IMG/VR virus record: IMGVR_UViG_3300001517_000002
Coordinates: 32,001 to 96,000 of that record
Source of the DNA: a virus
Lineage: Duplodnaviria > Caudoviricetes
DNA length: 64,000 bases
Direction: 5' to 3' (one strand)
The notes beneath the pieces are model-generated. The model ran no database searches. It was not told the origin of the DNA and saw only the letters and a list, made by a program, of their open reading frames with translations. Made by a program: the position numbers and the translations under genes. Numbering within the stretch: the first letter of the stretch is position 1; each line of letters begins with the position of its first letter. Shown piece by piece: positions 36,839-62,914 of this stretch.

Positions 36839-37072
36839 ATAATGGGGTAATTTAAATCTCTTTATTATTATATATAAAAAAGAGAACAAGAGGGGAATGT
36901 CCCCTCCTGCCAGAGATTAATACATATCTCTCTGATTATACCCGTAACAGATTTACTCTCTCTGTCATAGGCAGGTTTTTCTTTTCAAAACAAAACAACG
37001 GTATATAGGCAAATACGGTACTTACAAAGTACAAAATGAATAGTCGTTTTGAAAGAAATTCCTGTTGACATA

Positions 37073-40559: not shown

Positions 40560-41217
40560 TTGTTTTTACTCCCTTCAACCATAGCATTGCCATGTTATCT
40601 GTAATTTTACTTAAATCGTTATCCTTAATATTATAGTGCTTTAAAATTTCTTTGAAAGCAGAACCATGTTTATCGCCTTTATTAAGAACCTTTTTTAAAG
40701 TTTCAAATGTCAATTGCAATAGCCCCCTGTCATATAATCTAAATAGTTCCTGAGTTAATTTCAGTCCGTCAGGTGTTTCATAAACTGTGCGATATTTTGA
40801 CCAACTCTTTCTATCTGGAACTGAATAACATTTGTATCTCCATTTAAGAGAACCATCTTCATTGATAAAAGTATTATTATAAAAATCTGAACCCAACACA
40901 CAATACATTACATCTGTGTTTCCATCAACATTAAGTCCAACACAAGTTAATTCTCCATAAGGTCTAATTTGCTCTTTGACCTTATCCCAATGATTATACA
41001 GCCACGGCACTTTCTTTTCATCTGGTTCAAAGTCAGCACAGGTGTTTATATCAAAACACCCACAATCGTATGATTTGAAAATCTTTTTGGCAAATCTTAA
41101 ATGCTTGTGGTCTAATCTTTTACAGATAGATTTAACACCGTCCATATCAGCATTAACCTTAAACCATTTACAATGACCACATTCAATTCTGCACCATTCT
41201 TCACAATTGGTATTCAT
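40549..41217 (-). CDS. Cys-rich hypothetical protein
   Basis: CGHCKWF...C. Confidence 0.55.
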   Translation of the reverse strand: MNTNCEEWCRIECGHCKWFKVNADMDGVKSICKRLDHKHLRFAKKIFKSYDCGCFDINTCADFEPDEKKVPWLYNHWDKVKEQIRPYGELTCVGLNVDGNTDVMYCVLGSDFYNNTFINEDGSLKWRYKCYSVPDRKSWSKYRTVYETPDGLKLTQELFRLYDRGLLQLTFETLKKVLNKGDKHGSAFKEILKHYNIKDNDLSKITDNMAMLWLKGVKTNEY

Positions 41218-41349
41218 ATGTTATTGTCCTTTCAAACATTTTGTTTTTTCTCACTTCTTGCTTTTTTAATTTCTTCAAGAGTTAATGTTCTGCAATCCTT
41301 ACCAGTACGCATGACTGACAATGGACATGACAAACAATGTGATTGCTGA

Positions 41350-41604
41350 CTACATATCTGTTCTCGTGTCATTGGTTCTCCTTTCGTAATAAGCGTAAGC
41401 ATCATGTATGTTTTGTGTGGTAAGTTCCCACTTGTCGTTTATCCAAACGTGATATACAGGTGTAGTCCAATTATAGCAAGGTACACCATTACCTATTCTT
41501 GTCTTGGTCATATATAACCCTGTTGTATCATTACTGCTTTCGAGTTGATATAAACATTGGGTTTTATTATCAAAGGTAGAAGCCCACTGTTCTAAATTAG
41601 TCAT
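41350..41604 (-). CDS. Hypothetical protein
   Basis: AAGGAGG RBS; coupled to upstream gene. Confidence 0.55.
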   Translation of the reverse strand: MTNLEQWASTFDNKTQCLYQLESSNDTTGLYMTKTRIGNGVPCYNWTTPVYHVWINDKWELTTQNIHDAYAYYERRTNDTRTDM

Positions 41605-42547
41605 TGTCAGCCTCCTTAATTAGAAATATATCTTCAATGCCAGTTATTTGAGCGATTTTTTCTTTATTAGCATAAATACTATATAGTGCTGGATTGACAC
41701 ACAAATATTCTTTGATAACATCATTCTTAGCTGCTCTGACTGCAATCAATACTCCTCGGCTATCACCATTCTTATCAGGGTACTGAATCTTTAACAGTTG
41801 GTTTACAAATCTCTTTGAATGAGAAACATTAAGCCCAAGTTTGACACACAATGTATCAACTGACATTTTTGCAATCTTCGTTTTATCAGTTTCCCACGGG
41901 TTTTCGCATAGAACATTATAGGTTAAATTAACATAGGGAAGTATCATGTACATATAAGCTAACGTCTTATGGGAATCAACCGTAGCGTGTTCATATAAGA
42001 AACGAGTTGAGTATATAAACAACTTGGCTGCTCTCTGGTCTTTGGCTTTTTGTAATTTGCCCTTCCCGAATATGTTGGCATTAATCTGAAACCCTTCTTC
42101 ATCTTCAATAAGATAATTGTATTTCTTGGCTTCTCTGAGAAACCGCTTAAACGTACTGGTGTCAAGACCAAGTAAATCCTGTAACTGACACCGTGACAAT
42201 ATACGTCCATTATCATAGGCTATGTAATTGTCCTTATTAACATAAGTTGCCAAATAAACCAATCTACTTATTGTTGGATTGTTTAGATTATCAAACGATT
42301 GCTCGGATGGTACAAAGTAATGCCACACATAATTCCCTCCTTCACCTATGCTATTGTCATAGTCGCTCTCGTCCTGCTGCTTAATGGCATAATGTTTTCG
42401 CCCATAGTTCTTGCGATTATTGTATTCTTCTTCTGAGAAACAAGTAATAATGCTATTCTCAGAAGGTTCTTTAACTTCGCCTTTGTCATTAATAATTGCT
42501 TTGATACGTTCCATTGCATCATTCCTTTCAATTTTGATTTTCGCCAT
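41597..42547 (-). CDS. Replication-initiator-like winged-helix protein
   Basis: RLVYLATY...LQDLLGL..STFKRFL HTH, second HTH, VNPALY C-terminus; borders repeat-rich non-coding region. Confidence 0.55.
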   Translation of the reverse strand: MAKIKIERNDAMERIKAIINDKGEVKEPSENSIITCFSEEEYNNRKNYGRKHYAIKQQDESDYDNSIGEGGNYVWHYFVPSEQSFDNLNNPTISRLVYLATYVNKDNYIAYDNGRILSRCQLQDLLGLDTSTFKRFLREAKKYNYLIEDEEGFQINANIFGKGKLQKAKDQRAAKLFIYSTRFLYEHATVDSHKTLAYMYMILPYVNLTYNVLCENPWETDKTKIAKMSVDTLCVKLGLNVSHSKRFVNQLLKIQYPDKNGDSRGVLIAVRAAKNDVIKEYLCVNPALYSIYANKEKIAQITGIEDIFLIKEADND

Positions 42548-42750
42548 TTTTGACCCTTTTTGGGGGTGTTTTTCGCCATTCGTGACCCCACCCCCAAGTT
42601 CTGTTTTTCCCGAAAAATCGGGCTAAACTGGCGTTTTTTGAAAAATCCGTTCTTTTAGATTTAGTAAACCCCATACGCTTGCCAACAACACTTGCTTGCA
42701 TTTTGTACATTGCGGAGCTTAAAAAAATAAAACCTTACTGTTCTACAATT

Positions 42751-44651: not shown

Positions 44652-44908
44652 GGTATTGTCGAAAGGGACACGGAGAACAAAGTCAACAGGGAACAGAGTT
44701 GAAAACGGTTTGACAAAGTTCAAAGGTCGCTTGAAGAATCTTCTAAAAGTTTAGGGCTGAAAAGCTTGTTAAAAAACGAGGTTGATTCAAAATTAAAAAG
44801 TGCTTAAACCTCTATACGACAATTGGTTATGAGGGGCGGAGCGAATCCACGGATATTTAACCAGCTAAAAGCACAAAGCAACTTGAAAATTAAAAAGCCC
44901 ATCATGTT

Positions 44909-44937
44909 ATTATAGCAAGTTTTGATTAATTTGTCAA
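44909..44937 (-). promoter_or_regulatory. Leftward consensus SigA promoter
   Basis: TTGACA-aattaatcaaaacttgc-TATAAT on minus strand. Confidence 0.75.
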
Positions 44938-45023
44938 GGCTTGCTAATATCAACAATTCAAGTTCAAGAGCTTGAAAAGTTGCCAAAAAAATCAATGATA
45001 AAACAGTTAGGGAGGTCACAACT

Positions 45024-45230
45024 ATGACAGCTATAAATGTTTATAACCGTTATTATTGGCTATATCTTAAACAGTTTACAATGTGGCTAAATAATGAAGA
45101 TTATTCGCAAATTCAAGAGCGTATAAAACGCTATACAATAAGGATTTTACATCATAATAACAAGTTCAATCCTTTATTAATCAAGGCGGCTGCTCAGTCA
45201 AGCGCAAGAAATATTATAAATGGCATTTAA
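45024..45230 (+). CDS. Early hypothetical protein
   Basis: GGAGGT RBS. Confidence 0.55.
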   Translation: MTAINVYNRYYWLYLKQFTMWLNNEDYSQIQERIKRYTIRILHHNNKFNPLLIKAAAQSSARNIINGI

Positions 45231-45329
45231 AAATGCAAAATTGACCGTCTAAAGGCGGTCAAATTATGCCGAAAATAGCGTAAATTCGCTAAATTCAGCA
45301 CCATATCAATTTAATAGGAGGTCATAACT

Positions 45330-45647
45330 ATGACAAATGCACAGAAAATAATACTCTTTTTAGGACTCTTTGACAAAGAGACTAAAGCTCAAGAGATAAC
45401 CACATTAGACGCTTTTAAAATAGCGTCAAATCTGCTTACTGACATTATCGGTTTTGGTACAATTACCGAGGCTGTAGGCGTGTACACTCATGATGACGGT
45501 ACTATCGTCAATGAACCTACGCTCAGAATCGAAGTCTCCAATGTGGAGCTTGAGCCTATGAAAAGGCTTGCTATAGCCTTAAAATCGGCATTTAATCAAG
45601 AGTCAGTCGCTTTTGAAGTCGTTCATTCTGACTTCAATTTCATCTAA
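45330..45647 (+). CDS. Early hypothetical protein, small ferredoxin-like fold (DUF3574-like)
   Basis: G.TI.EA.G.Y...G..V.E.TL..E...LK..FNQESV pattern. Confidence 0.55.
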   Translation: MTNAQKIILFLGLFDKETKAQEITTLDAFKIASNLLTDIIGFGTITEAVGVYTHDDGTIVNEPTLRIEVSNVELEPMKRLAIALKSAFNQESVAFEVVHSDFNFI

Positions 45648-45731
45648 TCACAAAGTACAAAATGTAGGGCTGTTGCGTAACTTCTGCAACAGTGGGAGCG
45701 AGAACAGCCCGAAAAATGGGAGGAAATAGCT

Positions 45732-46010
45732 ATGAAAATTATCAGAACCATCAACAGGGACAAAGTATACCGTCATTGCAACGAACACGGATATTACACT
45801 TGCGGAAATAATAAGGAATATTCTGCAATGCTGGACAAATGCGCAGACTATGAACCCATAGAAGCTTCAGACGAGGATATTCTCGCTATTGCTAAAGATA
45901 TATGGGAACATTCCGATATGTCGGATTTTTTGGCAAGCGGCGGTGATTATGAGTGTTTTTTATGGGGAATTTTCAACGAGTGTACACGTTACGAGATTAT
46001 TTCAGATTAA
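45732..46010 (+). CDS. Early hypothetical protein
   Basis: GGAGG RBS; YTCG.N.EY..ML motif. Confidence 0.6.
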   Translation: MKIIRTINRDKVYRHCNEHGYYTCGNNKEYSAMLDKCADYEPIEASDEDILAIAKDIWEHSDMSDFLASGGDYECFLWGIFNECTRYEIISD

Positions 46011-46075
46011 TGCAGAGTAGTCGCCCTAAATAGGGCGATTAATGCAGCCAGTCAGACGGTTACAAGCCCGTGACT
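46009..46075 (+). ncRNA. Twister self-cleaving ribozyme, circularly permuted (type P5-like)
   Basis: AAUGCAGAGU, P1 hairpin AGUCGCCCU/AGGGCGAUU, UAAUGCAGC, P4 loop GGUUACAAGCCC; both pseudoknots (AC:GU, GC:GC) can form. Confidence 0.85.
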
Positions 46076-46113
46076 CACTGTAAATTTATGCCTAATTATA
46101 GGAGGAAACTGTT

Positions 46114-46371
46114 ATGTTAAATGGAAATATCGTAGAACTTAAACCCACTGACTCACGCAAGAGCTTTTATGGAAAAGCAAGAGTTGTTATGGCTGAAAAT
46201 GGGGATAAAACTCTGATTAGCTACACAACGCCCGTTCTCAAGCTGTCCGCTGATGGTAAACTGGAAAAACTATGGCACGGCTATTCTGCCACTACTATGC
46301 GGCATATCAACTCATTCTGTGACACTTTCGGAATCAACGGAGGCGGCAAAAGGTGGTGGGAGAATCTATAA
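46114..46371 (+). CDS. Early hypothetical protein
   Basis: KSFYGKA...L.SY.T.V...YSATT.RHI motif; RBS. Confidence 0.65.
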   Translation: MLNGNIVELKPTDSRKSFYGKARVVMAENGDKTLISYTTPVLKLSADGKLEKLWHGYSATTMRHINSFCDTFGINGGGKRWWENL

Positions 46372-46466
46372 GCATAACGCTGATGGAGGCTTGTGGAATT
46401 TTCTGCAAGCCGTAAAGCTACACTGTCATATCCAAAGTAGACAGATGCTTAAAGGAGGAAAATTAT

Positions 46467-47639
46467 ATGGCAAAGTACACTATTTTCTTGAATCGTCTGG
46501 AAGAACTCCAGAAGGTGTATGCCCGTTATGCCAAAAAAGCTGAAGCCATAGGTCTGGAAACTTCTCTGACTGTTGGTGAACCTTATATCAAGGCGGTGAC
46601 GGTGTATGAAGTTGATTATATCAATCATTGTCAGCGCAAAACTGGAATAATCAATGTTGATGTAGTTGACATTGACATACTTTTCCCCGATTATAGACTC
46701 GGAAATTATACCGTTGCAGCGGTAATTGACCACACTATTGATGCGGAAAATAATGCAATATACGCCTACGGTGATATTTCTATACCTATGGAATATCGCA
46801 AGGGACAGGGAATTTGTGAGCATTGCCGCACAAATCACAAGAGGAACAAAACCATATTACTTCTTGACAGTGACGGAAATTTCAAACAGGTTGGAACATC
46901 TTGTTTGCGTGAATATACTGGAATTTCTGACATTGATTTAGTCAAGGCTTTTGGAGCTTTTGACTCATTCCTTGCTGAATGTGATACGGAAAAAGGAACG
47001 TACACAGGAACGGGGAAAACATATGTCAAGACAGTTGATTATTTAGCTTTTTGTATTCATTCCATACGGAAAAACGGATATGACAAAGAGCTAAAATATA
47101 CAGCTTATGACGAGGTATTAGGAGAATCTAAATGCGCCTCAAGGTCTGATTATGAGGCAGCGGAAAAAGTCATTGAATACTTTGCCAATGCGGAATTTTC
47201 GGACAATTTCCTTTACAATATCAAGCTCCATGTTATGCAAAACTATTGCAAGGAAAATGGTTTTGTGGCATATGCTTATGTAGCGTATCAAAAGGAAATG
47301 GAAAAGCTTGCTGAACGCAAGGAAAATGCTGAAAACTCTGAATACTTTGGAAAAGTAGGTGACAGAATCAAGGATATTCCCGTCACTGGAAAAGTTGTAT
47401 CAAGCTATACAAATTGTTATGGAAGTATCTATAATTCAGTAACAACTTTCATTTACAAGTTTACAGATAATGCAAATCATGTATTTATCTGGAAAAGCTC
47501 ATGTGATATAGTTCTGGATGATAATGGAATTTTCAAGGGAACTATTACGGGAACTATTAAGGAACATTCTGAGTTTAAGGGAACTAAACAGACTGTTCTG
47601 ACACGTTGTAAGGTTAAAGAGGAGGAAAATTTATGCTGA
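46467..47639 (+). CDS. Early hypothetical protein with Zn-binding and probable C-terminal OB-fold domains
   Basis: CEHC...VGTSC; G.VGDR...GTIKEH..F.G.KQTVLTR. Confidence 0.65.
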   Translation: MAKYTIFLNRLEELQKVYARYAKKAEAIGLETSLTVGEPYIKAVTVYEVDYINHCQRKTGIINVDVVDIDILFPDYRLGNYTVAAVIDHTIDAENNAIYAYGDISIPMEYRKGQGICEHCRTNHKRNKTILLLDSDGNFKQVGTSCLREYTGISDIDLVKAFGAFDSFLAECDTEKGTYTGTGKTYVKTVDYLAFCIHSIRKNGYDKELKYTAYDEVLGESKCASRSDYEAAEKVIEYFANAEFSDNFLYNIKLHVMQNYCKENGFVAYAYVAYQKEMEKLAERKENAENSEYFGKVGDRIKDIPVTGKVVSSYTNCYGSIYNSVTTFIYKFTDNANHVFIWKSSCDIVLDDNGIFKGTITGTIKEHSEFKGTKQTVLTRCKVKEEENLC

Positions 47640-50600
47640 GATATACAAGGTCAATCGACTGGACAAGTTTGTGGGAGATGGACAAAAAGTCCATCATTTC
47701 CACTATGTACGGAAATATGAACGCTGATTTAAAGGCTGGCTATGACCCTTTCGGAAAAAGCATTAGAAGTCAGCGTGAACAGATAACAGCTTATGAACAG
47801 GATTATCTTGACACTTTGGAAAAGTTCAAGTATATGACTGAAGAACAGATTAATCATTGGTGCTTTTATGACTTGAAAAAGCGTGGAGCTATAGAATAAA
47901 AGGAGGAAAATTACATGAAACTCAAGGATTTAAAAAAGGGGGAATATTTTACCCTTAAACCGATAGAAGAACCAAAGGAAAATCAAGTGTACATTCGTGG
48001 AGAATATGACCGCACTGAAAAGAAGTATGAGTGCGGAAAATTCTCTGACATAAGCTATACACGTTATATTGACGGAGACAGGGAAGTATACACTGACTTT
48101 ACATTTTAAGGGAGGAAGAAATATGAAACATTTAAACATTCATTCAATGGATGGAAATATAGGCAAGTTTGCACTTGACCTTGAAATTATCAAGGAAAAT
48201 TCAAAATCAATCTATGCCGAGGGAATGTATGGAAATGTGTATCGAGTTGTTAAGAAAACAGGCTCAGTATATATTGACGGGGAAAAATACGCAGACAATA
48301 GCTCTTACAGCATTGTTGACTAAAGGAGGAAAATAATATGTTACACATAAGCTCTAAACCAATCACGGAAAAAGCTCAGATAGGTTATCTGAACTATAGC
48401 TCTATCTTTTCGGAACTTATTCACGCTGCAACGGTTTGTGAATACTTTGCAAGCGATATATTCATAGACTTAAAGCGGATAGAATGTGCTATCACAGGTG
48501 CGGAAAATAAAGTGTTCTATCTCGGTTATCGTAATAGCGGAGTTGATGGAAATACTTTTGTCAAGTCACGACTTTCGGGAAACAAATACTATGAATATAT
48601 CCGTCTGTACAGACTGGAAATATCTTCTGACGGAGAATATATCACGGTAGAACTCAAACGTGTATCAAATTATGATGCACATAAGGAACTTTGCGAGGAG
48701 GAAAAGTAAATGAAAAATATTATATTCTCAAACTATTATGACAGTGACAGGGAAAAAGCAACAAGAGAGTTCTTGTTGGAAGATAGAGGCGAGGACAACG
48801 GCTGGGAAAATATTGATGATATTCCCGACAGTGAAGTATGGGAAGAAATGTCATTCAATGAGCAGATAGACTGGGAAAATGTTACAAGCGAACTGGAAAA
48901 CTTCTTTGAGGGTAAGGAAATTCTTGTCATCGGAACTGTAGGCAGATGGAATGGCACATACTCTGCTGGAAAAGTTATATCATATAACGAACTTCATAAG
49001 TGCTGGTCTGACTGCGACTATGTGGAAATCTATGACGAGGACGGTCATATGCACATCAATGCAAGTCACCATGACGGAAACAACCATTTTGAAGTCAAGA
49101 TTCTTACGGAAAAAGGTAGAGACTACTATTCACGTTGGAATGAGAATTGGAGTGATTCACGGTCAGAACGGGAAATTCACACAAAACTTGCGGAAAGTTC
49201 ACGCTACACTCATATACCACATTTTGCAAGGAAAGTTTACGGCTGCAAAACACGATAAAGGAAAAGTATGATGGGCGCTTACAAGTCCCATCACCACATA
49301 CGATAAAGGAAATTTTCAAAGGAGGAAATTACTATGGCAAGACCTAAAATCACTATGAAAAAACAGATAAGGAATACGGAAATTTTCAACAGTATTCTTA
49401 AAAGCATAGGAGGAAAATGTACTGATACTGCGAGTGTTTATGTGAACGGAAAATTTTTCGCTCACTATTCTCGTGAAGTTGCAATGGAAGTATTTGATGA
49501 CATCAAGGGAAAAACTGTTGACGTTGTAAGTGATGTGACAGGGGAAATCTTAAAGCATAAGGAGGCATAATTATGAAAGTTATATTCAAAAAGTCTGATA
49601 CTGGAATACTTGCGTTCTATCCTGAGATGGCTGCCAACTATGGAAAAATATTCGCCTTTGAATATCTTGGTAAAGCACCAATGGGACAGGGATGTTTAGG
49701 AGGTCATATGGAAATATCCATTGACTACTATCTGTCATTAAAGAGCGCAAAGCCTAATGAATACGCAGAGGCACTGGAAAACTTACGTCATATATATGAC
49801 GAACCTTTGGAAGTTAGACAGCGCATAAACCATAATGACTTACGTTATAAGGCTTGGAAAAGGGAGGTAAACTAATATGAATAAAGCTATGGAAAAACTC
49901 AGACAGGAAATTGTGGAACTTTGCAATGAACTGGAAGTAAGCGACTATATAATTTATTGCAATGGAAAACGCTATATGTATGGAGGATATAGCAACCATA
50001 AGAATCAGCCCACAATACAGGATGCCGATGTGGAATCCTACTTGGAATATTGCAATCCTGATACGCTGTCAATGGCTTTCGAGGGAGAACTTCACAGCAT
50101 ATTCAATTACTCTTGGAATATTCCATACTGTGAAAGGGCAATCGAGAAGTTTGAAAAGCTCTTTGCAAAGTACGGATTTTATTATGAGCTTGGAAATTCT
50201 TGGAACTTATCGTTATATGAAAACTAAGGAGGAAATTATTATGTTAAATGAAATGATTAAGGAATACACAGAGCTTATGACTTCTCTCAATGAGAGTAAG
50301 GAAAAGGCTAATGCTATGAATAAGGAAATGTATAAGACAGACATCAAAGACAGGCTTGCCGATAAAGACGGTTGGAAAAAGCAGCTTGACAAATATGCTC
50401 ATATGGAAAACTTCATAAAGCACAAACAGGAATATCTGTACATTCTCCAATACAATATGTTCAATGCTTTTATAGTTGAGAATATGGAAACGATAAGGGA
50501 AATTGTAAACAAGTATGCTAACAAACCCATTGGAGAAAAGCGCAGCGAAAACTTATATAATGAACTTCATGCTCTTATTCCAAAAGAAGTTATGTATATT

Positions 50601-52633
50601 TTTAGTATAAGTATTAACTACAGAACTTTTGGAGGAATAGAAATATACCTCAACTACAAGAATAATCGCCATTGGGTTTGGATTATTGATAGTGGAAACA
50701 GCAAAGAGTACAGAGATAGTAACACATACTCAGAACTGACAGAGGAAAAAACATCTGATATAATCAACGATGCAAAAGGAAAAATCGTCAATGATATTGA
50801 CAAGTACATTGCTGATACCTATGAAAAAATCGCTGTCCTCAATGGGAAGATAGAAGAAGTTGAAAAGCTGTATTCGGAAATTAGAGATGCAGCCGATGAA
50901 ATGAATATATGGTCATACGATACAACTGTAAAGAAGTACAGAATATAAAGCTCTTGGAAAAAAGTAACAAAAAAGCACCATACACTTTGTACAATGTTAC
51001 ATATTGACAAAGTATAAAGTGTATGGTATACTGTAGGAGAAGTAAACATTTTGTACATTGCAAAAGGAGGAAATGTTATGAATACACCATTATCGAATCT
51101 GTTAAAGGAAAATCGTAAGGCATTACAGGGACTTCATATTATTGCTGGGATGGACTTTCAGAAGCCATTCCATATTATTGAAGCCATTGGAAACTTTACT
51201 TATAATTCGGTTATGAATCTGCTTGGAAAACCTGACCTTGATGAAGTCAATATATTTGTAATGTACAAGTCATCAAGAACTTGGGATGCAAACTACAATT
51301 ATCTCGCTCACGTTATCAAAGGAAAATTTGAAACTCAGCGTAATGACATTGAAGGCTATGAATCAGGTGGTTGGCGTTGGTTCGATACCGCAATAGGTAA
51401 AGGAACTTTTGAGAAAAAAAGAAAAGACAAGAATTGCCACTACTGGATAATTGCACAGGAGCGGAAATATGCTGTACAATCTAAGCCTAAAGCTGTGGAT
51501 TATTCCGTAAGGTATAGAACCAAAATAGACCATGGAAATTATTATGCCATTCCATATCACAAAAATGGTGATTGGTTTTACGATGATGTAACCTATGGTA
51601 TTTATGGAAAACCTGAGAACTTCCCTGACAAGTCTGGATATTTCAATACAAACGATTATCCGACAAGAGTACGGAAACTTAAAGCAGAACGCTCCGCTGC
51701 CGAGGCTGCAAAGTTCGACAATACGGAAAAGCTCAGAGAGTTCACGGAACGTATCAATCATTGCAATGAGGCATTGCAGATTATTCTCGCAGGAAATTAC
51801 ATTGATATTGACTACGAAAAAATCTCAGACGTAATACGTCATCTTCGTTTTGGAAAGCGTTATTACAAAGAGCTTAAAGCAAACGGCTTTACTTCCATGA
51901 GAGATATTAATTATACTTTGGAAAGATTAGAAGATGAAGTTAGAAGTGCCGAGAAGTATTTGAAGGGAGAATAAAAATGGCTGATATTATGTTCCACTTG
52001 GTTATTTATCTGTTCTTATGGAGAATCCTTATGGAATTAGATACCATAAAACATAGCCTAAAAGAAAAGGAGGAATGAATTATGAGTAAAAGAATTGGTG
52101 TAGCTGGGACATGGTTCTACGGAAACGAGGTCAGTGATTATGGAAAAAATAATAACAGAGTTGACTATCGTACATTAGCAAAGGCGTTTGGACACGTTGA
52201 TGCTGGAAAACTCATGGACGTACACCCTGACTACTGCGATGGAGCAGAGTGGGAAGTGGTCAACGGCAATGGATATTTCTACGAGGACTACAATGAGAAT
52301 GAATACAGTTATGAAGAAGCTCAGAAGCGTATCGAAGAACTGAATGAAGAACTGGAAAAGCTGGAAGAACTGGAAGAACTTACAGAAGAACAGGAAGAAC
52401 GCATAAAAGATATTGAGTATGACATTCATTCTCTTGGAGAAGGAAAATTCAGAGACTTCTATAACTACTTAATAATAGACAGTAACGGTGCGGAAATTCT
52501 GAAGGAGTGGACAGACGAGTATGTAATATATAATGAGGAACTTGACCTTTATGTGTGGGGAATAGACCATTGTGGAACTTCTTGGGATTACGTTCTCACG
52601 CAGATAAAATGCAACTATAAAGAAGAAGAATAA
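47633..52633 (+). other. Array of early hypothetical CDSs: 47633-47899, 47915-48109, 48123-48323, 48338-48709, 48710-49258, 49334-49570, 49573-49875, 49877-50227, 50241-50948, 51078-51974, 52082-52633
   Basis: Head-to-tail plus-strand ORFs, nearly all with AGGAGG RBS; no recognisable functions. Confidence 0.7.
51004..51032 (+). promoter_or_regulatory. SigA promoter flanked by operator copies
   Basis: TTGACA-aagtataaagtgtatgg-TATACT; CATTTTGTAC at 51047. Confidence 0.75.
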
Positions 52634-53104
52634 TAAAAAAGTAGAACAGGAGACAATAAAATGACTATTAATGGGAGGCATTGGCATTTAAAAAAGGAAA
52701 TGGAAATTCGATTGCAGGGTATTGCATTGGCATTGCTTGGAATTATGTGCCGTAACAATAATATTGATGGCGTTGCAATTTTATTCTTAGCGTGTGGCAT
52801 TGCTTTAACCTTTGGAAAAAGGAGGAGAGTTAATGACTCAGAAGCAGACAGAGAATTGTCTCAAGGTTAAATCAGCCTTGATTGACATTTTCGACAATGG
52901 AAGATTAACAAAGTATCTTCCCACAAGTTATCTCGCATTTGAATTAGCGAGAACATACAATCATATAATCAAAAATGAACCTGTGGAAACTATTAACAAG
53001 GAGCTTAAAGACTTCTATGAAAAGAACGGGTTTACAATCACAAACAAGGGCATAGGCTGGACAATCAGCTTATAATAAATATTGAATTTTAGGAGGAAAA
53101 TATT

Positions 53105-54115
53105 ATGACAAAGGCAAACATTTCATGGAACATCAATCAGATAGTAAAGGGCATGGCAAACGGAACTATCCGTTTTGATAATGCTATTCAGCGTGGTTAT
53201 GTGTGGGATAAAAAGAGGGCATCACTTCTTATTGACAGTGTACTCAGGGAATATCCTGTGCCGCCTATCTTTACAATCAGAACAGAGGAAAAAATTACAG
53301 TAAGGAATAAGGAAGTTTCTGTCTATGACTGCATAGACGGAAAACAGAGGTCAACAGCGTTCAAACTGTTTATGGAAAATGAGTTCGCTTTAACAGGGCT
53401 TGAGCCTATTATTCAGTCAGATGGCTCGGAAATTGACATAAATGGCAAGACCTTTGAGGAACTTGACGAGGAAATGCAGGATGCTATTAAGTCTTACACT
53501 CTGACAGTTTATTACTTCTCAGACATTACAGACGAGGAAGTTGCAGAAATGATGTCAAGACTGAATAATGGTAAGGTGCTGACAGGAACGGAAAATGCCC
53601 GTATCAAGGCAAAGCAGCTTGACACTATCAAGGAGCTTGCAAGTCATGCTGTACTTACAAACTACCTTACGGAAAAAGCAATCAAGGGATATGTCAACGA
53701 GGACATTGTAATCAAGTTTGCCCTTCTGCTCAGTGACCAGACGGAGCTTTCAAACAAAAATGTTCGTGAAGCGTATGAGACTTACAACTTTGGAGAATCT
53801 ACTTGCAAGAGCATTACTGATACTATGGACTTCGTTCTTGAAGCTATTGAGGATAGCACTGACGATAAGAAGCTTATCAAGCGTATGACTTCAAAGGCAA
53901 ATCTGATTACCATTCTGTATGTAGCACATGAGTATCTTGTAAACGGAAACGCTGATGTCAGCGAGTTCGCTGACAGGCTGGCTGAGTTCTTTGACGGAAA
54001 GAATGGAGCTACTATTAGTGATGATTATAATAGTGCTTGCACAAACGGAACAATGCGTAGTGCAAATGTACTTACAAGAAATGACGAGTTCTACAAGTAT
54101 GTAATGGGAGAATAA
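53105..54115 (+). CDS. DUF262 (ParB/GmrSD N-terminal-like) domain protein
   Basis: QRGYVW...LIDS.L..YPVP.IF...IDGKQR.T...F...RLNNG..L. Confidence 0.85.
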   Translation: MTKANISWNINQIVKGMANGTIRFDNAIQRGYVWDKKRASLLIDSVLREYPVPPIFTIRTEEKITVRNKEVSVYDCIDGKQRSTAFKLFMENEFALTGLEPIIQSDGSEIDINGKTFEELDEEMQDAIKSYTLTVYYFSDITDEEVAEMMSRLNNGKVLTGTENARIKAKQLDTIKELASHAVLTNYLTEKAIKGYVNEDIVIKFALLLSDQTELSNKNVREAYETYNFGESTCKSITDTMDFVLEAIEDSTDDKKLIKRMTSKANLITILYVAHEYLVNGNADVSEFADRLAEFFDGKNGATISDDYNSACTNGTMRSANVLTRNDEFYKYVMGE

Positions 54116-57100
54116 CATAACATTCTGTTTAGCGGACAGACTGTACATCTGTCCGTCTTACAGAGTGTTGTGTTTAAAAGCAAATAATAAGACGAGGGAG
54201 GAAAATATTATGAATGAATATATTATAGACGATTTTACAGGAAAGTTGACAGGACTTTACAAGGATTATATGTTTAACATCAGGATAATCAAAGGCGATT
54301 CGCCTATAAAGGCAGTAAGAGCAGCATACAAACCTTTTGGAAAAATCAGAAAAGCAAAAGCATTTGAGAATCCCGATGTTATTATAACAGCGATAAGACG
54401 AGAAGAAAACAAGTTGATACGCACAAGCGGACAAATGTGTTATATGTTTGAGGAGGCATAATTATGAGAGTGAAATATTTACCAGTCAAGACAGGTGAAA
54501 GACTTAATATATCACAGTACCCTAATTTTCACAAGTCAGGCAGTATCAAAGGAATGAAGAAGCTCTATTACGGTGAGAACGCTTTACTTGTAAGATGTGG
54601 CGAATGGATATACAAAGTACCACAGGAAATTTATGATAGAGCGCACTGAACGGAGGGAAATGTTATGACAAACAGATTTGAGCCAAGAAAAAGAACTGCA
54701 CTTGATGGAAAAGTGTGGTGGTGCGTATATGACAATCAGAACAATTGTTATTCTACATATATTTGTCACGGCAAATATAAGACTAAACGAAAGTGCATTG
54801 AAACTATTGACTTTTGGAATAAAAAATATTTTTCTAAATAAAAGGGTGATTTAAAAGCCAGACGGGGAGCTTACAATCTCCGTCACCATAGACAATAAAA
54901 CCAAAAGGAGGTAAAGGAGGAAATTATGAAGGTAATGAATCATATGGATTATGAATGTACGCAGCCAAACAAAATTGATTGTGAAGCCTACATCCATTTT
55001 ATGTGTAATCCAGACAACTCATACAATTGCAATGAATGTCCTGAACGTGAATCTGGATGTGATGACGGATTGCCTTGTGGTCAACAGCATTGTTGGGTAG
55101 ATATACATTGTAAGGAGGAAAAGTTATGAAAAAATTTATTATTAAAATTGAAGTTAATAATAACATTACATTAGAGGATGTGGAATCAGCTATCTCTGAA
55201 ATGATAAACAATTATCTTGATACAACAAATGGCTTTTATGAAATTACAGATACAGAAATTGGCGATGAGGATGAATTGAACTTAATAAAAGAGTGATTTA
55301 AGAGAGGGATTTGATATGATAGGTAGATTAATTCTTGGAATTTTTTTCTTTGCATTAGCTATTTTCGAGATAAGATTAGCTAATAAACGTAAAGAACAAG
55401 ATATTTTACAGCTATTATTCTTGATATTGTGTCATGGATTTTGTTGCGGATTATTAATCAGCAGGTTTCTGACAGATATAATTAATTAGGAGGAAATTTA
55501 AATGAAAAAGAGAATTGCGTTTGCATATGTTACAATTATAATGGATTTTGCAACACAGGGAGATGCGAAAGAATATAAACATAAGAACATTGCAAAGCAT
55601 TGGAGATTTTCGGAAATAAGATATACAGGTGACAGCGAATATCCTTATTCAATGGAAATTACAAAGCCATATGGCAAATACCCCACTGGATATTAATTAG
55701 GAGGAACAAGAAATGTATATCAAATATGTAATTGAGAAATACGGAGAGCAATACAATTGGAATAAAAGAAAAAGCCCACCAACACAGGATGATTTGTATG
55801 GGAATTATTATGCAAGTGATATTTCAACAGTAGATACAATTGGAATATTTGACACGGAAGAAGAAGCAAAACAGCATATGCCGACAGAGGTGGTTATTGA
55901 TACGGAAAAATACAATAGCTACAACGATACAAGAACAATATGGTACGATGTTTATGCCTTGTTTGCAGTCGAATTTGACGGAGGAGATGAACTTAACAGG
56001 GAAGAAATAGACGTTGTGATAGCTTAAAGGTTTGTATGAGGAAAAATAAGGAGGTCAATCATGTATCAAAAGTATATCGGAAATCCCAGCGAAGCAATAG
56101 GGAAAACCCTTTATGTAAAACTGCCATCAGGCTATGTAGCTGGAAAAGTTGTGGAATATATTTATCCTAAATACGGAATAGTTGGAACGTATAAGGTTAA
56201 AAGAGCAGACGGAAAAACAATGAGCGCACAGACTCTTTATTGTCCACAGGTTTATATCGACTGCTTTAGAACAATGGATTATCACGACTTTGAAAAATTC
56301 CCTTGTGAGAATTGTCCATTCAATAAGAAATGCGGAAGTTATAGGTAGGAGGTCAATTATGACAGTCAGAGAGTTACTTGATGATTTTCAGCTATTTAAA
56401 GGGAAAATTTATGTATATCAAGGAGAGTTCGGGGATAATCTTGAATTTGATGCAGATGACGATGAGGAAAATTTATCAAATGCAGAAGTGGTTGAGTATG
56501 AACTTAACTATGGCACACTATACATAGAAATAAAATAATACTTTGAGGAGGATTAATTATGACGGTTAAGGAATTTTTCGCAAATCTGAATCGTATAGTT
56601 GCCGATTATAACGTAGGTATGAGGGACATATCAAGCAATACGGAACATCATAATAGTGTTAATACGCTTATGGAAAATGAAGATTTATACAACGATTGGA
56701 AAAACGCAACGATATGGTCGTGGTGCGTTATAGACAATAAGTTTGTATTGACTGTACAGAAATGAGGAGGAAGATTAAATGAAACTTGATGAACTTATAA
56801 AAGGACTTACAGAAATACAGGAACAGTATGGAAATCTTACTGTTGAGATTGTGAGAGAGGGAGTTCACCTTCCTGAGATTGAACCATACATTGACGGAAA
56901 CTTTCTTTACTTAGAAGCCTATGAAGAAGGAGAGGGATTAGTATGAAAACACTTGAACAGTTGTTTAAAGATAACAGAAATGATTTTGTGGAACTAATGA
57001 GAGAGTTTGAAGATAGTTATACACCTAAAACTTCATGGGAAAATATGACCGACAACGCACTGGAAGAATTTAAAGGTTACTGTGAAGATGAAGCAAGTGG

Positions 57101-60100
57101 TTTTTTAAAGAATAGCTATGAGAGTGGTGCTAATAGTTCTGATTATGTTTTGAATGAATTTGACAGTATGCTTTGGACATATGCTCAGTGCATACAGCAG
57201 TTCGATATAATACAGGGAGGTTGCTTTATATGAATATCAAAAACCGTGAACAGATAATTGAACAGCTTACGGAAATGCTGATACAGTTTGACAAGGACAT
57301 GAACAAGTATCAGACAGATGTATACCTTTATTACAATAAGGAAACTCAGACAGCAGAGCTTGATACCTTCGTAAATGTGGGTGGAAATTCTTGGCTTGAC
57401 GATGACCACTCTACAATCTATACCGACAAGGAACATAATGAAACTGTGTGGAACTGGTTCAATAATTCTACAGAAATCGCAGATGTATTGGAATATCCCA
57501 CATATACAGAGTTCGATTATGATGTAAGACAAGCCCTTGAAATTGAAGCAGATGAGGATATTGCGTGGGAAGATTATATAGTTTACATCAAGTCAAATGA
57601 TGATTATATGGAAAAGATATACGCAGCCTACAAGGAATACATTGACGAATTGCGTTCTGAGTATGCAGAAAAAGCAGAAATGATAATGAAGCAGTTTGAA
57701 GATGAAATGACAATTAAGGAGGGAACTGCAGTATGAAAACAACTTGTGTTCTTGGAGCTAACAGTAAAGAGGGTCTGGAAAACATGATAAATAATTATTT
57801 CTACTCGGAAAATTATATTATCACAGACGATAATAGAGTATACAACCGTAAGACTATGAAATATCTTGACGGGTATATTGTACAGGAGAGGAAATTAAGA
57901 TGGAGTTTTAGGAGAATTGAAAAAGAAAATTGAGCATAGCTAATTGCCTATAATGGTGACAGCTTATAGGTAAATACATATGCTTAACGAAATCCAAACA
58001 TAAATAAGGAGGAAATTTATATGCTAAGATATGATATTATGTATGCTTGTCTTGGTAATGGAATTACCGTATGTAACAGAGCGCAAACGGAAAATGGTGA
58101 TTATAAAATTATAGCACACATTTCCAATGGTGGAAATATTGAATATCGAGTAAACAAGGACAAGCTTCCAGCGTATGCAATTAAAGGCATTGAGAATATG
58201 GCTGATGCTGAAAAGAAAAAATTTAGGGAAAATTTTATTAAGCTCCCCAGACTTAGACAGTATGAAATAATGCTTGACTCACTTCCTTGGTCACGCATAC
58301 GTCTAAGGTTTAAAGGAGCGTATAACAATGAAGAACTTTGGAAAGAACTCTTAAATGAGTATTTTGAAATTGCATAAGGAGAAAGATGATGACAGTACAG
58401 AAGAACTTGTTAAATAGAAAAACTCCTGCAAGAATTAATTATCCACAAGTTATCCGTAATGACGGAGCAGTATTTGAAGTATGCGGAAGTGATTATTACG
58501 GTTGGGAAATTCTTGTGATTTATGAATGGGGTTCAGACAATGTGTTCTTGATTGATGGAGAACGCAAAGGGATGCCACCACCAAAGTTTAAGACAAAAAT
58601 ACAGGCGGTCAAATACATGATAGAAAACGCAGACAAATTTACGTTTATGTAATTATAGAAAAAAAATGGATGTGGGAGGAAAAAATATGAGAAATAAATA
58701 TCCAGAATGTTGCTATAGTCATGACATATATAATAACTGTACTATTATTAAATGGGGAGAGTCGGGTTATTATAGAACTGATTTCCCGTCAGGACAGTAT
58801 GATGACAGTATTGTAAATGAGCTTAATAAAAATAGTGGCGTTACACCCCAGATGCGTAGAGCAATGGAAATATGTTCTATGGCTTCGCAGAACAATCCTA
58901 ATTTAAATTGGGAGAATCATTATGATATGATTATGAGGAGGCTGAAATGAAAAAGTTAATTAAGGAAATTAATGAATGTACGACCCTCTATCGTGATGAT
59001 ACAACAGGTATTGCTTGGATAGAGGATGGTTCAACTGGAATGGGAATATCAATACACCCTAACATATCCAACACAGGCTCAGTCAGAGGAATGAAAGACA
59101 GAGGATATTGGGGAAGAAAAGACCGCACGATTAGAAGTCACGGATGGATTTATAACATTGATAGACTTGTAGTCGATAATAATAATCCATTGGAAAAATT
59201 ATTAGCTAATACAGAATGTAAGTGTCAGGCTTGCATTGAACGTAGGGAGGACATATATGAAAGAAGATGACCTTTATTTTAAGAACGGAAAAATGAAGAA
59301 AAAATATATGATGTGTGAGAGCAAGGAATATCTCACAGAAATTAAAAACGCTAACGGATATAAAAACATAGACGAGATTAATAAATCTTGGGTATGTGCT
59401 GGAAATCGTTGTCCTTATTATAGTATGGGCTGCAAGAAATAAGGAGGAAGGTTATGGAAAACAAAGTATTTACAACAGGCAACAGTGGTTATTTGGGTAC
59501 TGAATATAGGTTGTATATAGACGGAAACAAAATTGAAACAAGGTATGACAACAGCGGCGATAATTACAGAAATCTTATGTATGATAATTATGTACACGGC
59601 TATACAACTGCACAAGTACGCAAGGCACAAAAGGAATACGATTATTGGAAGGAACAATTGGAAGAAATGAAAAATGCTCCTATTGTAGAAGATGATGAAG
59701 AATTTTTAGGAGAGTTATAATAAGGAGGAATTTTAAAATGACATTGTATGATTTTATCCGCATGGAAGATACAGACTTTGACACATATGACACGGTATTT
59801 GATGCCGAGGTCACTGTATGTGTGCCTTATGATGATTCGGAAATAACAGAATGGTATGACAAGTTTTATAACTTCATTATCAAACACGTTGAGTTTAAGG
59901 AAAAGATTTCAGAAGGTGAGTGTACCGCTGAATGGACAAACTTCATTACTGATAATCTGGAAATATTCAGAGAGGCAGCTAATGATATGTGGTACGATGA
60001 CCGTGTTCCTGACGATGACGATGACCTTATCTATGAATGGATTAAGGAAATACATAGTTGGCTTGCAGGATATGTAAGTGAAGTTGAATACCAGAAGTTT

Positions 60101-60704
60101 ATGGAAAAGTATGCACCCAAAATTAAGTAAAGGAGAGAATGATATGTTAAAAAAGAATATAAAAATTATTAAAGGAACATTAAGACCAGAAAAGGAAAAA
60201 CTTGCAAAGGTTGTTTATCATGGTGGGTTCTATTATGCCTGTGATGATTTCAGAATGGTGCGTTTTGAAGAACTTCCCGATGAACTCCCTTTGTTTGAGG
60301 ACAACGAGCCACGTTTCGATGTGGAATTTGGTGTGCTTAGAGCTGCGGAACAAACATACAGAGAGTTTGTAGTGCCATATCCGATTGAGGTATTGAAGAA
60401 GTGGAGGACTGGTAAAAGGAAAGAACCATATAGACTTGGAATAAGCGGAAAAACCTCTTATGGTTCTGAGCATTGGTTTGGAATTAATATTAATTTCCTT
60501 ATTGATGCTATCGAAACAACAGGTTCTTATGTGATTAAAGTCCCTGAGAGATATACGGCTATGGTAATGGAAGGTAATGGATTCACTTGGATGATTATGC
60601 CAATCGATGTTAAGGACGGTAAGGATAAGGGCGAAACTATTATAGTATAAATACAATGTACAAAATGAACATAAGCACTACATACATTTTGTACAATATT
60701 TATC

Positions 60705-60733
60705 TTGACAACGTACAAAATGTATGGTAAAAT
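60705..60733 (+). promoter_or_regulatory. SigA promoter with three GTACAAAATG operators
   Basis: TTGACA-acgtacaaaatgtatgg-TAAAAT; operators at 60658, 60685 (inverted), 60713. Confidence 0.75.
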
Positions 60734-60938
60734 ATGTATGTAAGGAGAAGAATATGATATATATAATTTTTACACAGGGTAATGAAGAAAAGGAAATTGC
60801 TTTCTGCAATACATTAGCAGAGGCAAAGAACAAGAAAAGAGAGTTAGAAAAATCCCCCGAATATTCAAATGGCTTGCTTACAATTGAAGTCAAGACCAAT
60901 AAGGGTAGTAGAATTTTAGGATAAGAAGGGGATATAAT

Positions 60939-61166
60939 ATGAGTAGAGTTAGAGATTTAACAGGGCAGAAGTTCGGCAGACTTCGTGTTCTTGAGCGAAT
61001 GGAAAACGCAACAGACGGTCACGCACAGTGGCTTTGTGAGTACAAATGTAATAACAGATTAATTGTTACAAGTCAATCGTTAACTTGTCATAAAACAAAC
61101 AGTTGCGGTTGCTATCGTAATGAAAAAAACAAGGCACGTTTCAGTGGTCAGGAGGTTGTATTATAA
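60939..61166 (+). CDS. N-terminal DNA-binding module of phage AP2/HNH homing-endonuclease type, lacking a nuclease domain
   Basis: DLTGQKFGRL.V......W.C...C....V....L......SCGC. Confidence 0.65.
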   Translation: MSRVRDLTGQKFGRLRVLERMENATDGHAQWLCEYKCNNRLIVTSQSLTCHKTNSCGCYRNEKNKARFSGQEVVL

Positions 61167-61330
61167 TCAAAAGGAGGTGAATATCCAATGGGACTGGCGG
61201 CAGCAATATCAAACGAAATACAATTAAGAGATAAAGGAGAATATGGAATTTTACATCATATGCCATACTTGTATTTACTTTGTCTCGCTTATAAAATGAA
61301 TTTAACAATATGAAATAGGAGGATTTTTTT

Positions 61331-61876
61331 ATGAAAAAAATAATATCAATTATAATTTCAGCAGCAAGTATTATTACAATCAGTCCCATGTCTGCAAGGG
61401 CAGTCAATGGATTTAGACCTAATGGGAGACTCAAGCTTGACATTAATGCGGATGAGTATATCAACGCCGTTGATGCGTCTATTGTCCTTTCTGAATATGC
61501 TAAATCCGCAACAGGTGAGGGCGAGTTCACAAGGACAGAAAAATTTGTAGCTGATTTCAACGATGACGGAAAAATTGATGCAGTTGATGCTTCTGGAATC
61601 CTTGCAGTATATGCTCAGAATAGTAGTAGGGATTGCAAGGAATATCCTATTACAACATTGGAATTTTATAGTATGATAAAAGTTGGTCATGACTGGATTG
61701 CTTGTGGTAACTCTTTCCTTTCTTACGAAGAAGCAATGATTGCTCTTGAATGTGGTAAAGAGAACCTTGAAGAAAAACGTCAGACTTATTCTGAGTGTAA
61801 CATTCAGATGGTGTCAACAATCATGACAGACTTACCGCAGACAGAAATCAAGTATGTATATAGAGAAGTAAAATAA
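61331..61876 (+). CDS. Secreted dockerin-domain protein
   Basis: Signal peptide MKKIISIIISAASIITISPMSARA; duplicated repeats DINADEYINAVDAS and DFNDDGKIDAVDAS. Confidence 0.85.
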   Translation: MKKIISIIISAASIITISPMSARAVNGFRPNGRLKLDINADEYINAVDASIVLSEYAKSATGEGEFTRTEKFVADFNDDGKIDAVDASGILAVYAQNSSRDCKEYPITTLEFYSMIKVGHDWIACGNSFLSYEEAMIALECGKENLEEKRQTYSECNIQMVSTIMTDLPQTEIKYVYREVK

Positions 61877-61890
61877 TAGGAGGGCTAATT

Positions 61891-62850
61891 ATGTCAGCCA
61901 ATCTTAATAACCAGAAGTTATGTAATGTTATTGACATATCAAGGCGAGAATATGATTTTAATGCTTTCATTCCAAGTTCCCATGACAGTTTGTCAGAACA
62001 AGAACTTACAGAAATTGAACGAGTAGAAGCTGCGCAGAGAGCTGGTCAAGGAGATGACGAGTTACCTGTTGGGATATTTAATGACCTTCTAAAATATTTT
62101 TTAGATAACCATGATTATCGAAGTGCATTATGGATAACTTTGCAAGCTAACACTGGATTAAGATATGTTGACATAAGTAAATTTAGGAAGATAGAACTTA
62201 TAAATGAGAACAATTTATTCCGTGAGTCGATACTTGATAGCGAACAGAAAACAGGTAAAAAAAGAATTAACTTTATTAATGATGCTATTAAAATGGCGAC
62301 ATTATTATATTTGTGGGACAACCCAGAAATTAAATTACTCGACTATCTTATTGTTGCTGATAAGAACGCACCCAACAGAGGCTATAAGAAAGAAACGTAC
62401 ATTGATAGTAGAGGAAATAAAAGGGTAAAAAGAGAGAATGGCAAATATGTTTATGTTCTCGATTCCAATGGAAATAAAATTATTGAACCACTTTCAATAC
62501 AATGCGCAAATGAAATTATAAAAAAGGCTCTTGTTGATGGTCTGGGAATAGCAATAAGAAATAGTCAGGGGAAAGATGGTTATTTAAAAATAGCTACTCA
62601 TTCCCTTAGAAAAACATATGCAGGGGCAGTAGTAGACTATTATACAAGACAGTTTGACACAAACAAAGAGTATGCTCATGCTGCTGCAATGGAACAGCTA
62701 CAATATGACTTAAATCATAGTAGTCGAAAAATGACATATCACTATATCGGTGATTATGTTGAAACTAAACGCTCAATAAATATGAGCATGAATTTAGGGA
62801 TAGATGTACTCAAACCAGTTTTTGATGTAGAAAAGGAAAAGAGGAAGTAA
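61891..62850 (+). CDS. Tyrosine recombinase (catalytic domain intact)
   Basis: TGLR, EQKTGK, HSLRKT, LNHSS..T.HYIG. Confidence 0.88.
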   Translation: MSANLNNQKLCNVIDISRREYDFNAFIPSSHDSLSEQELTEIERVEAAQRAGQGDDELPVGIFNDLLKYFLDNHDYRSALWITLQANTGLRYVDISKFRKIELINENNLFRESILDSEQKTGKKRINFINDAIKMATLLYLWDNPEIKLLDYLIVADKNAPNRGYKKETYIDSRGNKRVKRENGKYVYVLDSNGNKIIEPLSIQCANEIIKKALVDGLGIAIRNSQGKDGYLKIATHSLRKTYAGAVVDYYTRQFDTNKEYAHAAAMEQLQYDLNHSSRKMTYHYIGDYVETKRSINMSMNLGIDVLKPVFDVEKEKRK

Positions 62851-62885
62851 CTTGAAGAACAACTCAAATTCCCTTATATTTACAC

Positions 62886-62914
62886 TTGACAAACTGGAAC
62901 AGATGTTCTATAAT
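62886..62914 (+). promoter_or_regulatory. SigA promoter with LexA/DinR (Cheo) box
   Basis: TTGACA-17-TATAAT with GAAC-agat-GTTC at 62897-62908. Confidence 0.75.

Follow-up and report, generated by a model that had tools for sequence, protein, structure and literature searches.

A strand-specific YGGAAAWT array over two early operons of a YonO phage and the purge of the same word from the rest of the plus strand

The array and its boundaries

The stretch of DNA analyzed here (the window; 64,000 nucleotides) corresponds to positions 32001-96000 of the 113,447-bp phage record IMGVR_UViG_3300001517_000002 (denoted G000 in genome comparisons) and carries, on the plus strand of two early operons, an array of the word YGGAAAWT, with roughly one GGAAA per 60-100 bases. 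Positions refer to the window unless a genome coordinate is indicated, and gene calls are longest open reading frame calls; the record ends overlap by 87 bp, indicating a circular assembly. The phage has the SPbeta architecture, with a PolIII-alpha-like polymerase, DnaB, primase, RecJ, an anaerobic ribonucleotide reductase (RNR) and a dockerin protein, in addition to a YonO-like RNA polymerase (RNAP; Table 1), and the array-bearing block matches, by synteny, the yonR-to-yopR/yoq region of SPbeta. The anaerobic RNR, the dockerin protein and the rest of this gene set suggest an anaerobic host among the Clostridia.

An earlier note on this window reported, from hand counts, 28 GGAA and 21 GGAAA on the plus strand of 48301-49320 compared to 1 on the minus strand, 16 GGAA in 57061-58080, 8 in 61921-62880, and 3 on each of the coding strands of the capsid and RNAP genes; a recount gave identical numbers. 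The abrupt onset described there was reproduced as well: the 43200-45720 segment contains 2 GGAA and no GGAAA, and the first array copy, at 45722, sits in the ribosome-binding site of the gene that starts at 45732. Altogether, GGAAA occurs 173 times on the plus strand of 45720-62880 and 7 times on the minus strand, compared to 66 and 128 times, respectively, in the remaining 96 kb of the genome (239 plus-strand copies in total). On the plus strand, 16-28 GGAA per kb are found only at 46-60 kb of the window, compared to 3-7 in other plus-coding regions of equal base composition (G 0.21, A 0.36), and the contrast between the array, with up to 15 copies per kb, and the rest of the plus strand is 20- to 30-fold. 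Most of the GGAA copies (253 of 295, or 86%) are intragenic, and intergenic DNA reaches the genic density.

The k-mers of the block, compared with the expectation from the other plus regions, delineate the word: GGAAAA is present 93 times against 2.7 expected, TGGAAA 61 times against 2.7 and CGGAAA 42 times against 2.0, and GAAAG is depleted. Among all 1024 5-mers, GGAAA is the most strongly enriched one in the blocks when this genome and the array-bearing relatives G001, G002 and G003 are pooled (z=18.6). The logo, Y-GGAAA-W-T, is identical in these four genomes, with G before the word and C after it disfavored, and its information content is limited to about 8 positions.

The array follows the transcription units: it is absent from the pre-block, begins behind an operator, steps down where internal promoters and operators lie, and in both G000 and G002 has a perfect promoter at its end (Table 1). 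In G000, promoter-like sites and operators lie at approximately 51.0 and 60.7 kb, and the last of these units, which encompasses a 75-aa (amino acid) gene, the gene for the dockerin protein and an MrpR/YopR-like gene with a tyrosine recombinase fold, is followed by a perfect promoter, beyond which there are 2.3 GGAAA per kb in 62915-66000 and 1.1 per kb in the remaining right-hand plus genes. In G002, the array (10-18 per kb) ends sharply at a perfect sigma-A promoter followed by tRNA-like sequences (G002 50141-50700, corresponding to 10141-10700 of locus L092), and the next 5.5 kb of plus genes contain two GGAAA copies. Each relative likewise has 2-4 motif-free genes ahead of the array, and the array is invariably located on the coding strand. 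The decay with distance proposed in the earlier note is apparent in all four genomes (Spearman rho from -0.57 to -0.82), and density declines within blocks too, but in G000 the decay is largely stepwise at regulatory boundaries. The suggestion of a signal beside a putative genome end, on first-injected DNA, is not supported: the record is a circular assembly, and the onset at 45720 is not at a DNA end but roughly 1 kb into a plus-strand unit, downstream of two motif-free genes and an operator.

Table 1. Features of the window that bear on the array (window coordinates unless indicated otherwise)
Feature	Position	Strand	Remarks
GGAAA-purged plus strand across the minus-strand late cluster	1..42750	+	7 copies in genes vs 22 expected
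beta-CASP/metallo-beta-lactamase protein with RMMBL RNA-specificity domain (RNase J/CPSF73-like)	34267-35688	-	1.4 kb downstream of the YonO gene
YonO-like RNAP	37073-39934	-	One of the few proteins common to all array-bearing genomes
Perfect minus-strand promoter	42751-42779	-	GTACAAAATG operator in the spacer; heads the YonO-containing cluster
Motif-free pre-block	44660..45650	+	Leader and two small genes (68 aa; 105 aa); 0 GGAAA per kb
GTACAAAATG operator copy just ahead of the array	45655..45664	+	No recognizable -10 hexamer adjoining
Array unit 1 (block a), densest	45720..50950	+	23.9 GGAA, 15.1 GGAAA and 13.6 GGAAAW per kb; TTTCC 0.6 per kb
Array unit 2 (block b)	51050..60650	+	16.0 GGAA and 9.0 GGAAA per kb; preceded by a promoter-like site (~51004) and two operators (50983, 51047)
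Weakly enriched operator-controlled unit	60940..62880	+	3.1 GGAAA per kb
Perfect TTGACA-17-TATAAT promoter	62886..62914	+	Heads a new plus-strand unit; density drops to baseline
Onset of the remaining plus genes, purged of sense GGAAA	62915..64000	+	Continue to genome 113447 and 1-30000

Relatives of the phage were gathered via YonO homologs (141 loci). The same array was identified at the switch from late (minus-strand) to plus-strand genes also in G001 (YonO 84% identical), G002 (45%), G003 (37%; a provirus) and three further loci (L038, L133 and L157), and it is present in two fragments (G011 and G012), which were the only additional true arrays that a triple-motif scan of IMG/VR recovered; G013, a complete 58-kb phage that lacks YonO, shows only a mild coding-strand excess. 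Altogether, at least seven related YonO phages infecting gut Clostridia have both the array and the purge described below. In the YonO tree, the array phages belong to two gut-Clostridia clades, with none in the Bacillus/Paenibacillus clade. The gene content of the block is mostly unrelated among these phages: G001 shares about 15 of about 40 genes with G000, and G002 and G003 share next to none, with an MrpR/YopR-like gene marking the distal block in all four genomes. A megablast search of the phage collection with the block gave no match, and no close relatives of a 390-aa block protein were found in IMG/VR. The array and the purge are absent from SPbeta and two other relatives (G004 and G006), and SPbeta contains neither a GGAAA array nor an analogous array of any 5- or 6-mer. 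In agreement with the earlier note, which knew of no description of such a feature in SPbeta-like phages, literature searches found no such array described.

Selection on the word and its purge elsewhere on the plus strand

The enrichment withstands every null model that was applied. In dinucleotide-preserving shuffles of the region, 295 GGAA copies compare to 134+-11 (z=15) and 173 GGAAA copies to 49+-6 (z=21). For the 36 plus genes of the region, which contain 148 GGAAA, a synonymous shuffle with the region's own codon usage yields 86+-6 (z=10), fixed amino acids with the codon usage of other genes yield an expectation of 63 (z=14), and codon permutation yields 51 (z=14.5), with the enrichment present in all three reading frames. 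The codon choices that the earlier note singled out are evident: glycine is encoded by GGA before AA in 67% of the cases, compared to 13% in other plus genes, and G-ending codons precede GAA in 40% of the cases, compared to 9%. The choice depends on context, with A following G|GAA in 63% of the cases and H|GAA in 28%. The persistence of the excess under all nulls, in all frames and in intergenic copies indicates that selection acts on a nucleic acid word rather than on codons or proteins. Thus, the proposal of an overlaid, strand-polar and position-dependent nucleic acid signal that is independent of the encoded proteins is borne out, in that the enrichment remains under region-specific codon and dinucleotide nulls and related YonO phages carry the same positional array.

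The copies avoid one another at short range. Neighbor distances below 20 nt occur at 0.23 of the geometric expectation (four genomes pooled), compared to approximately 0.8 for unrelated frequent 5-mers, whereas distances of 30-100 nt are in excess, so that copies exclude each other within 20-30 nt; this exclusion would fit either a saturating benefit per local segment or a reader footprint. No periodicity, at the 10.5-bp helical repeat or otherwise, was detected except for codon phase. In nine orthologous gene pairs from G000 and G001 (87% nucleotide identity), 80-85% of the sites are conserved, compared to 58% for other 5-mers (p=0.003) and 61% for words of the same composition (p=0.002), and the word sites are under purifying selection. 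No presentation in hairpin loops was found: in folds of either strand, the unpaired probability is 0.635, compared to 0.599 for composition-matched controls (p=0.21), which points to a linear, single-strand word. In 11 of the 36 block genes, accounting for 11 of the 173 copies, the word lies between the Shine-Dalgarno (SD) sequence and the start codon (GGAGGAAA); a similar placement of the word, 6-15 nt upstream, is seen in 8 of the 66 other plus genes.

Outside the block, the word is purged both from the sense of other plus genes and from the antisense of late genes, a pattern newly found here. In the late genes of G000, the antisense word (TTTCC in the coding sequence) occurs 7 times compared to 22 expected (z=-4.6), with the sense GGAAA being neutral (91 vs 96). 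Sense GGAAA occurs 25 times in the replication genes of this phage compared to 54 expected (z=-5.1), and 16 times compared to 28 expected in the right-hand plus genes; the ratios for the remaining plus genes are in the range of 0.46 to 0.57 in G000 and 0.26 to 0.52 in its relatives. The purge repeats in three further genomes, and when the four are pooled, no other of the 1024 5-mers shows as strong a depletion as GGAAA (z=-14.2) in the sense of other plus genes. In the pooled late-gene sense, TTTCC is depleted in all three frames (43 vs 102; z=-8.8) and is the sixth most depleted 5-mer, behind five words that overlap the palindromes GATC, CTAG, TCGA and GGCC. The purge extends over the YonO gene region, which is located behind a sigma-A promoter and hence read by the host RNAP. 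The array-free G004, G006 and SPbeta show no purge (ratios of 0.74 to 1.0), which indicates that the array and the purge are one system.

As a separate observation, all gene classes of G000-G003 strongly avoid words overlapping GATC, CTAG, TCGA, GGCC and CATG (for example, GGCCA, 0 vs 47.5 expected, and CTAGA, 17 vs 98), which is classical restriction-site avoidance.

The control region and neighboring elements

The array is preceded by a repeat-rich control region (42.6-45.7 kb) that contains two perfect minus-strand sigma-A promoters. Copies of the GTACAAAATG operator are located at 42699-45664, 51047, 60658-60722 and 37029, with 11 exact copies in the window; allowing at most one mismatch, there are 22 copies compared to 8.8 expected, three of which precede the dockerin/MrpR-like unit. 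The 43400-44300 segment encompasses ATCGAT-containing repeats in 14-bp phase (43421-43476), about five AAACGCCGATATATAGCC-type elements and CTATAAATAG palindromes; these repeats appear iteron-like and could possibly form an origin or a binding field for a second regulator.

The plus-strand unit begins near 44.62 kb and carries the two motif-free genes. The second of these (45330-45647, plus strand; 105 aa) shows a sub-threshold match to S-adenosylmethionine (SAM) lyase (18.6 bits, with a cut-off of 28; 22.2 bits for the G001 ortholog) and may be an anti-restriction first gene. An anti-restriction first gene of the SAM-lyase type is found in phage T3. The first intergenic gap of the array operon contains a Twister-P5 ribozyme (Rfam RF02684; 46011-46071, plus strand; 55.5 bits, with a gathering score of 37.6), which implies that the array transcript is processed as RNA; the downstream cleavage product does not begin with the GGAAA word. 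Farther inside the array, at 53105-54115 (plus strand), a 336-aa DUF262/GmrSD_N (ParB-like nuclease) protein is encoded that is retained in G001 and matches the PADLOC defense component NsnA (E=3e-27).

At the convergent junction of the replication and late genes, a hairpin with a 12-bp stem and a T-run is present on the minus strand (genome 29869-29898; 9869-9898 of locus L002), and another, with a 10-bp stem and a T-run, on the plus strand (genome 30424-30450; 10424-10450 of L002). These are probably terminators that part plus- and minus-strand transcription.

The beta-CASP/RMMBL protein encoded near the YonO gene (Table 1), which G000-G003 and several other YonO phages have retained, may act together with YonO in RNA processing or termination.

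Possible readings of the word

The array tracks transcription units and is always in the sense orientation, which favors reading in RNA. We tentatively prefer, with somewhat less than even confidence, the interpretation that the array is an RNA-level label on the two early operons that is read by a single-strand-specific factor. The label would consist of multivalent, evenly spaced, linear YGGAAAWT in the sense of 45720-50950 and 51050-60650, and would be read single-stranded, most probably in mRNA, by a sequence-specific factor, such that the labeled transcripts would meet a fate different from that of all other plus-strand transcripts; the purge of the other plus strand would keep the label unique. 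The likeliest action appears to be a RegB-like program in which endonucleolytic cleavage shuts off early messages that are short-lived (those for host takeover or accessory functions), with about 3-5 sites per small cistron; almost as likely, a non-cleaving RNA-binding protein would coat or sort these RNAs. Considering that the same word is used across phages with YonO proteins that are just 37% identical, the reader can be predicted to be either a conserved factor of the host or an enzyme of the phage core, as opposed to an accessory protein that evolves fast.

The closest parallel to such a label is RegB of phage T4, an endoribonuclease that acts on linear RNA at GGAG, a word over-used in early messages and avoided in later ones, and that ends early expression. 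The array shares with the RegB sites a purine word of 4-5 nt that is enriched early and avoided in later messages (block compared to other plus genes), and a fraction of the copies between SD and start codon. However, efficient RegB sites are located in SD regions, whereas most of the array copies are intragenic, at about 9-15 per kb, and evenly spaced, and the purge reaches late-gene antisense, something not expected from a RegB-type mechanism.

In addition to the intragenic location of most sites, several observations weigh against an RNA-level label. The plus-strand purge also spans the minus-strand late cluster, including the part that is read by the host RNAP, so that reading in RNA would require plus-strand antisense RNA in this region that matters, and the entrance to the late cluster is guarded by the terminator-like plus-strand hairpin described above. 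Late mRNAs avoid GGAAA only mildly (ratio of approximately 0.85). No match to the RegB family (PF10715) was found in G000-G003, with the profile giving no match in the control genomes either; a nuclease not homologous to RegB could also act on the word. No protein families were found that are present in the four array-bearing genomes but not in three array-free ones (BLASTP, E<1e-3), except for one tail-region protein. This protein (183 aa; genome 51096-51647, or 19096-19647 of the window, minus strand), which has an 854-aa homolog in G003, is probably structural, with the association being coincidental. The beta-CASP/RMMBL ribonuclease was rejected as the reader, given that it was not detected in G009 and G010, which have the array, while G004 encodes it and has none.

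That the purge takes in the entire plus strand, late-gene antisense included, favors a process that sees one DNA strand throughout. On the whole rather unlikely, but ahead of the other alternatives, is thus a polar signal on the DNA strand that would be read by a unidirectional, genome-traveling machine, such as a rolling-circle or unidirectional replisome, an AddAB/RecBCD-type helicase-nuclease moving from a fixed end (Chi-like), a translocase guided by sites similar to FtsK-orienting polar sequences (KOPS) or SpoIIIE recognition sequences (SRS), or the DNA-entry machinery. The block would then be a loading, attenuation or stop zone, and stray plus-strand copies would be harmful, which explains by construction a purge that disregards gene orientation and leaves the minus strand neutral throughout. 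Furthermore, the block abuts the control region, whose 14-bp-phased ATCGAT repeats and CTATAAATAG-type palindromes could hold an origin, and density falls away from this region in four genomes. However, stepwise changes at promoters and operators, and ends at perfect promoters, are not predicted by a distance signal, and 9-15 sites per kb is far above the density of known polar words. Chi-enriched phages and the orientation-dependent action of Chi provide precedents, and the array (173 plus vs 7 minus copies, with the purge on the plus strand only) resembles Chi in being a short asymmetric word in one orientation; Chi, however, which is polar along a whole strand relative to a set direction of entry and can protect phage DNA, occurs at about 1 per kb or less through the genome and is not purged elsewhere on its strand, whereas the array word is limited to 15% of the genome and is promoter-bounded, and known Firmicute Chi sites contain GCGG. 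KOPS and SRS, both 8-mers, share one orientation throughout whole replichores, with depletion on the opposite strand; the array has in common with them a purine-rich, strand-skewed word whose density changes along the DNA but differs in that it is the same strand that is purged outside the block, the opposite one being neutral. The word is not over-represented compared to its reversed control in two of three candidate host metagenome-assembled genomes (MAGs), which are incomplete bins and may differ from the phage's own host (625 vs 623, 539 vs 638 and 715 vs 302), and with no purge in array-free relatives, no general host constraint on the word is visible. Improbable, in our assessment, is a stop signal, whereby leftward YonO, or any RNAP, would weakly pause or terminate at the minus-strand complement, AWTTTCCR, with copies cleared from the 40-kb late operon and massed upstream, where they would serve as a terminator or insulator zone. 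The YonO of SPbeta reads the late genes as a single operon from one start, and its processivity is high (PMC5467207), so that weak stop signals would be costly there. Consistent with a stop signal, TTTCC is the top non-palindromic depleted 5-mer in the late-gene sense, YonO is shared by all array-bearing genomes, the 20-30 nt exclusion is on the order of an RNAP footprint, and density rises toward the late operon. Against a stop signal stand the purge in the antisense of replication and other plus genes, where termination of minus transcripts would be welcome, the purge in the YonO gene region, whose transcription starts at a sigma-A promoter, and the lack of array and purge in many YonO phages including SPbeta; moreover, a few terminators between genes would achieve the same at far lower cost than the recoding of 15 kb of genes.

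More improbable still is a decoy for type III CRISPR-Cas systems, in which ACGGAAA(W) in early RNA would mimic the 5' tag of III-A CRISPR RNA (crRNA), with hundreds of tag-like sites about one crRNA length apart, and the tag would be purged opposite the transcribed strand because a tag-bearing fragment from there would guide interference against the phage. The III-A crRNA tag of S. thermophilus is ACGGAAAC (PMC9297841). ACGGAAA is identical to the first 7 of the 8 tag bases and occurs 24 times in the block compared to 5 times in the other 98.5 kb of the genome, the minimum spacing, at about 30 nt, approximates the crRNA length, and a decoy gives a direct reason for the strong purge opposite the heavily transcribed late operon. 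However, TGGAAA is more common than CGGAAA in three of the four genomes, C after GGAAA (tag position 8) is disfavored (4-8%), the full tag ACGGAAAC is present in 6, 1, 1 and 0 copies in the four genomes compared to 12-23 for ACGGAAA[AT], the sense strand bears the tag rather than the target-masking anti-tag, and no Cas10/Csm1 was detected above the cut-off in the three candidate host MAGs (incomplete bins). Known RNA anti-CRISPRs are phage-borne solitary CRISPR-repeat mimics, and Cas6 requires more than 7 nt of repeat; by comparison, the array offers only 5-7 tag-like nucleotides without a repeat, with the last tag base disfavored, in hundreds of copies within coding sequence. Finally, we assign hardly any weight to the lack of function, that is, to a compositional, codon-usage or mutational by-product or a horizontally acquired module. 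Part of the excess does reside at the amino acid level (136 GGAA expected from the proteins with the genome codon usage compared to approximately 60 at the density of other genes), and the block genes are highly mobile. Nevertheless, composition, codon usage, codon order and dinucleotides as the cause are excluded by the shuffle nulls; the short-distance exclusion is stronger than for any control word, the sites are conserved above background, and the same word is actively purged elsewhere on the plus strand and recurs as an array in divergent phages with unrelated genes. The remaining probability belongs to mechanisms beyond those listed here.

Two other systems built from repeated sites are instructive. 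The stoperators found in Cluster A mycobacteriophages are double-stranded sites of 13 bp for a repressor, which number about 25-35 in each genome and lie mostly between genes; similar to the array, they form a large set of asymmetric sites that share one orientation with respect to transcription within phage operons, but the array word is 5-8 nt long, is present in 170-300 copies, and is mostly located inside genes. CsrB and RsmZ are dedicated small RNAs that present CsrA sites in hairpin loops, about 1 per 16 nt; the array would similarly yield a multivalent GGA-containing RNA but shows no loop bias, has a specific AAAWT flank, and places its sites in mRNAs. No known system explains the combination of array and purge. 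It is conceivable, albeit doubtful, that these phages employ a previously undescribed self-addressing code, with hundreds of weak, evenly spaced single-strand sites on early transcripts or on one stretch of a DNA strand that is sharpened by erasure elsewhere. If so, the code would capture or decoy a conserved host machine, such as a type III CRISPR effector, Cas6 or a stress nuclease, and newly acquired early genes would be either rewritten or drawn from a shared pool.

Chi, KOPS and the GGAG of RegB are among the few cases of an instruction layered over genes. The overlay described here is exceptionally strong, is paid for in synonymous and amino acid choices and is retained in at least seven divergent gut phages with unrelated block genes. 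If the word is read as RNA, as we tentatively prefer, it points to a new sequence-specific RNase or RNA-binding protein that would sort early from later messages in gut Clostridia, whereas reading as DNA would point to a new direction-sensitive machine. In either case, SPbeta, which lacks the array, is a natural negative control within the same phage architecture, and the word is a simple computational marker for this class of genes in uncultured phages.

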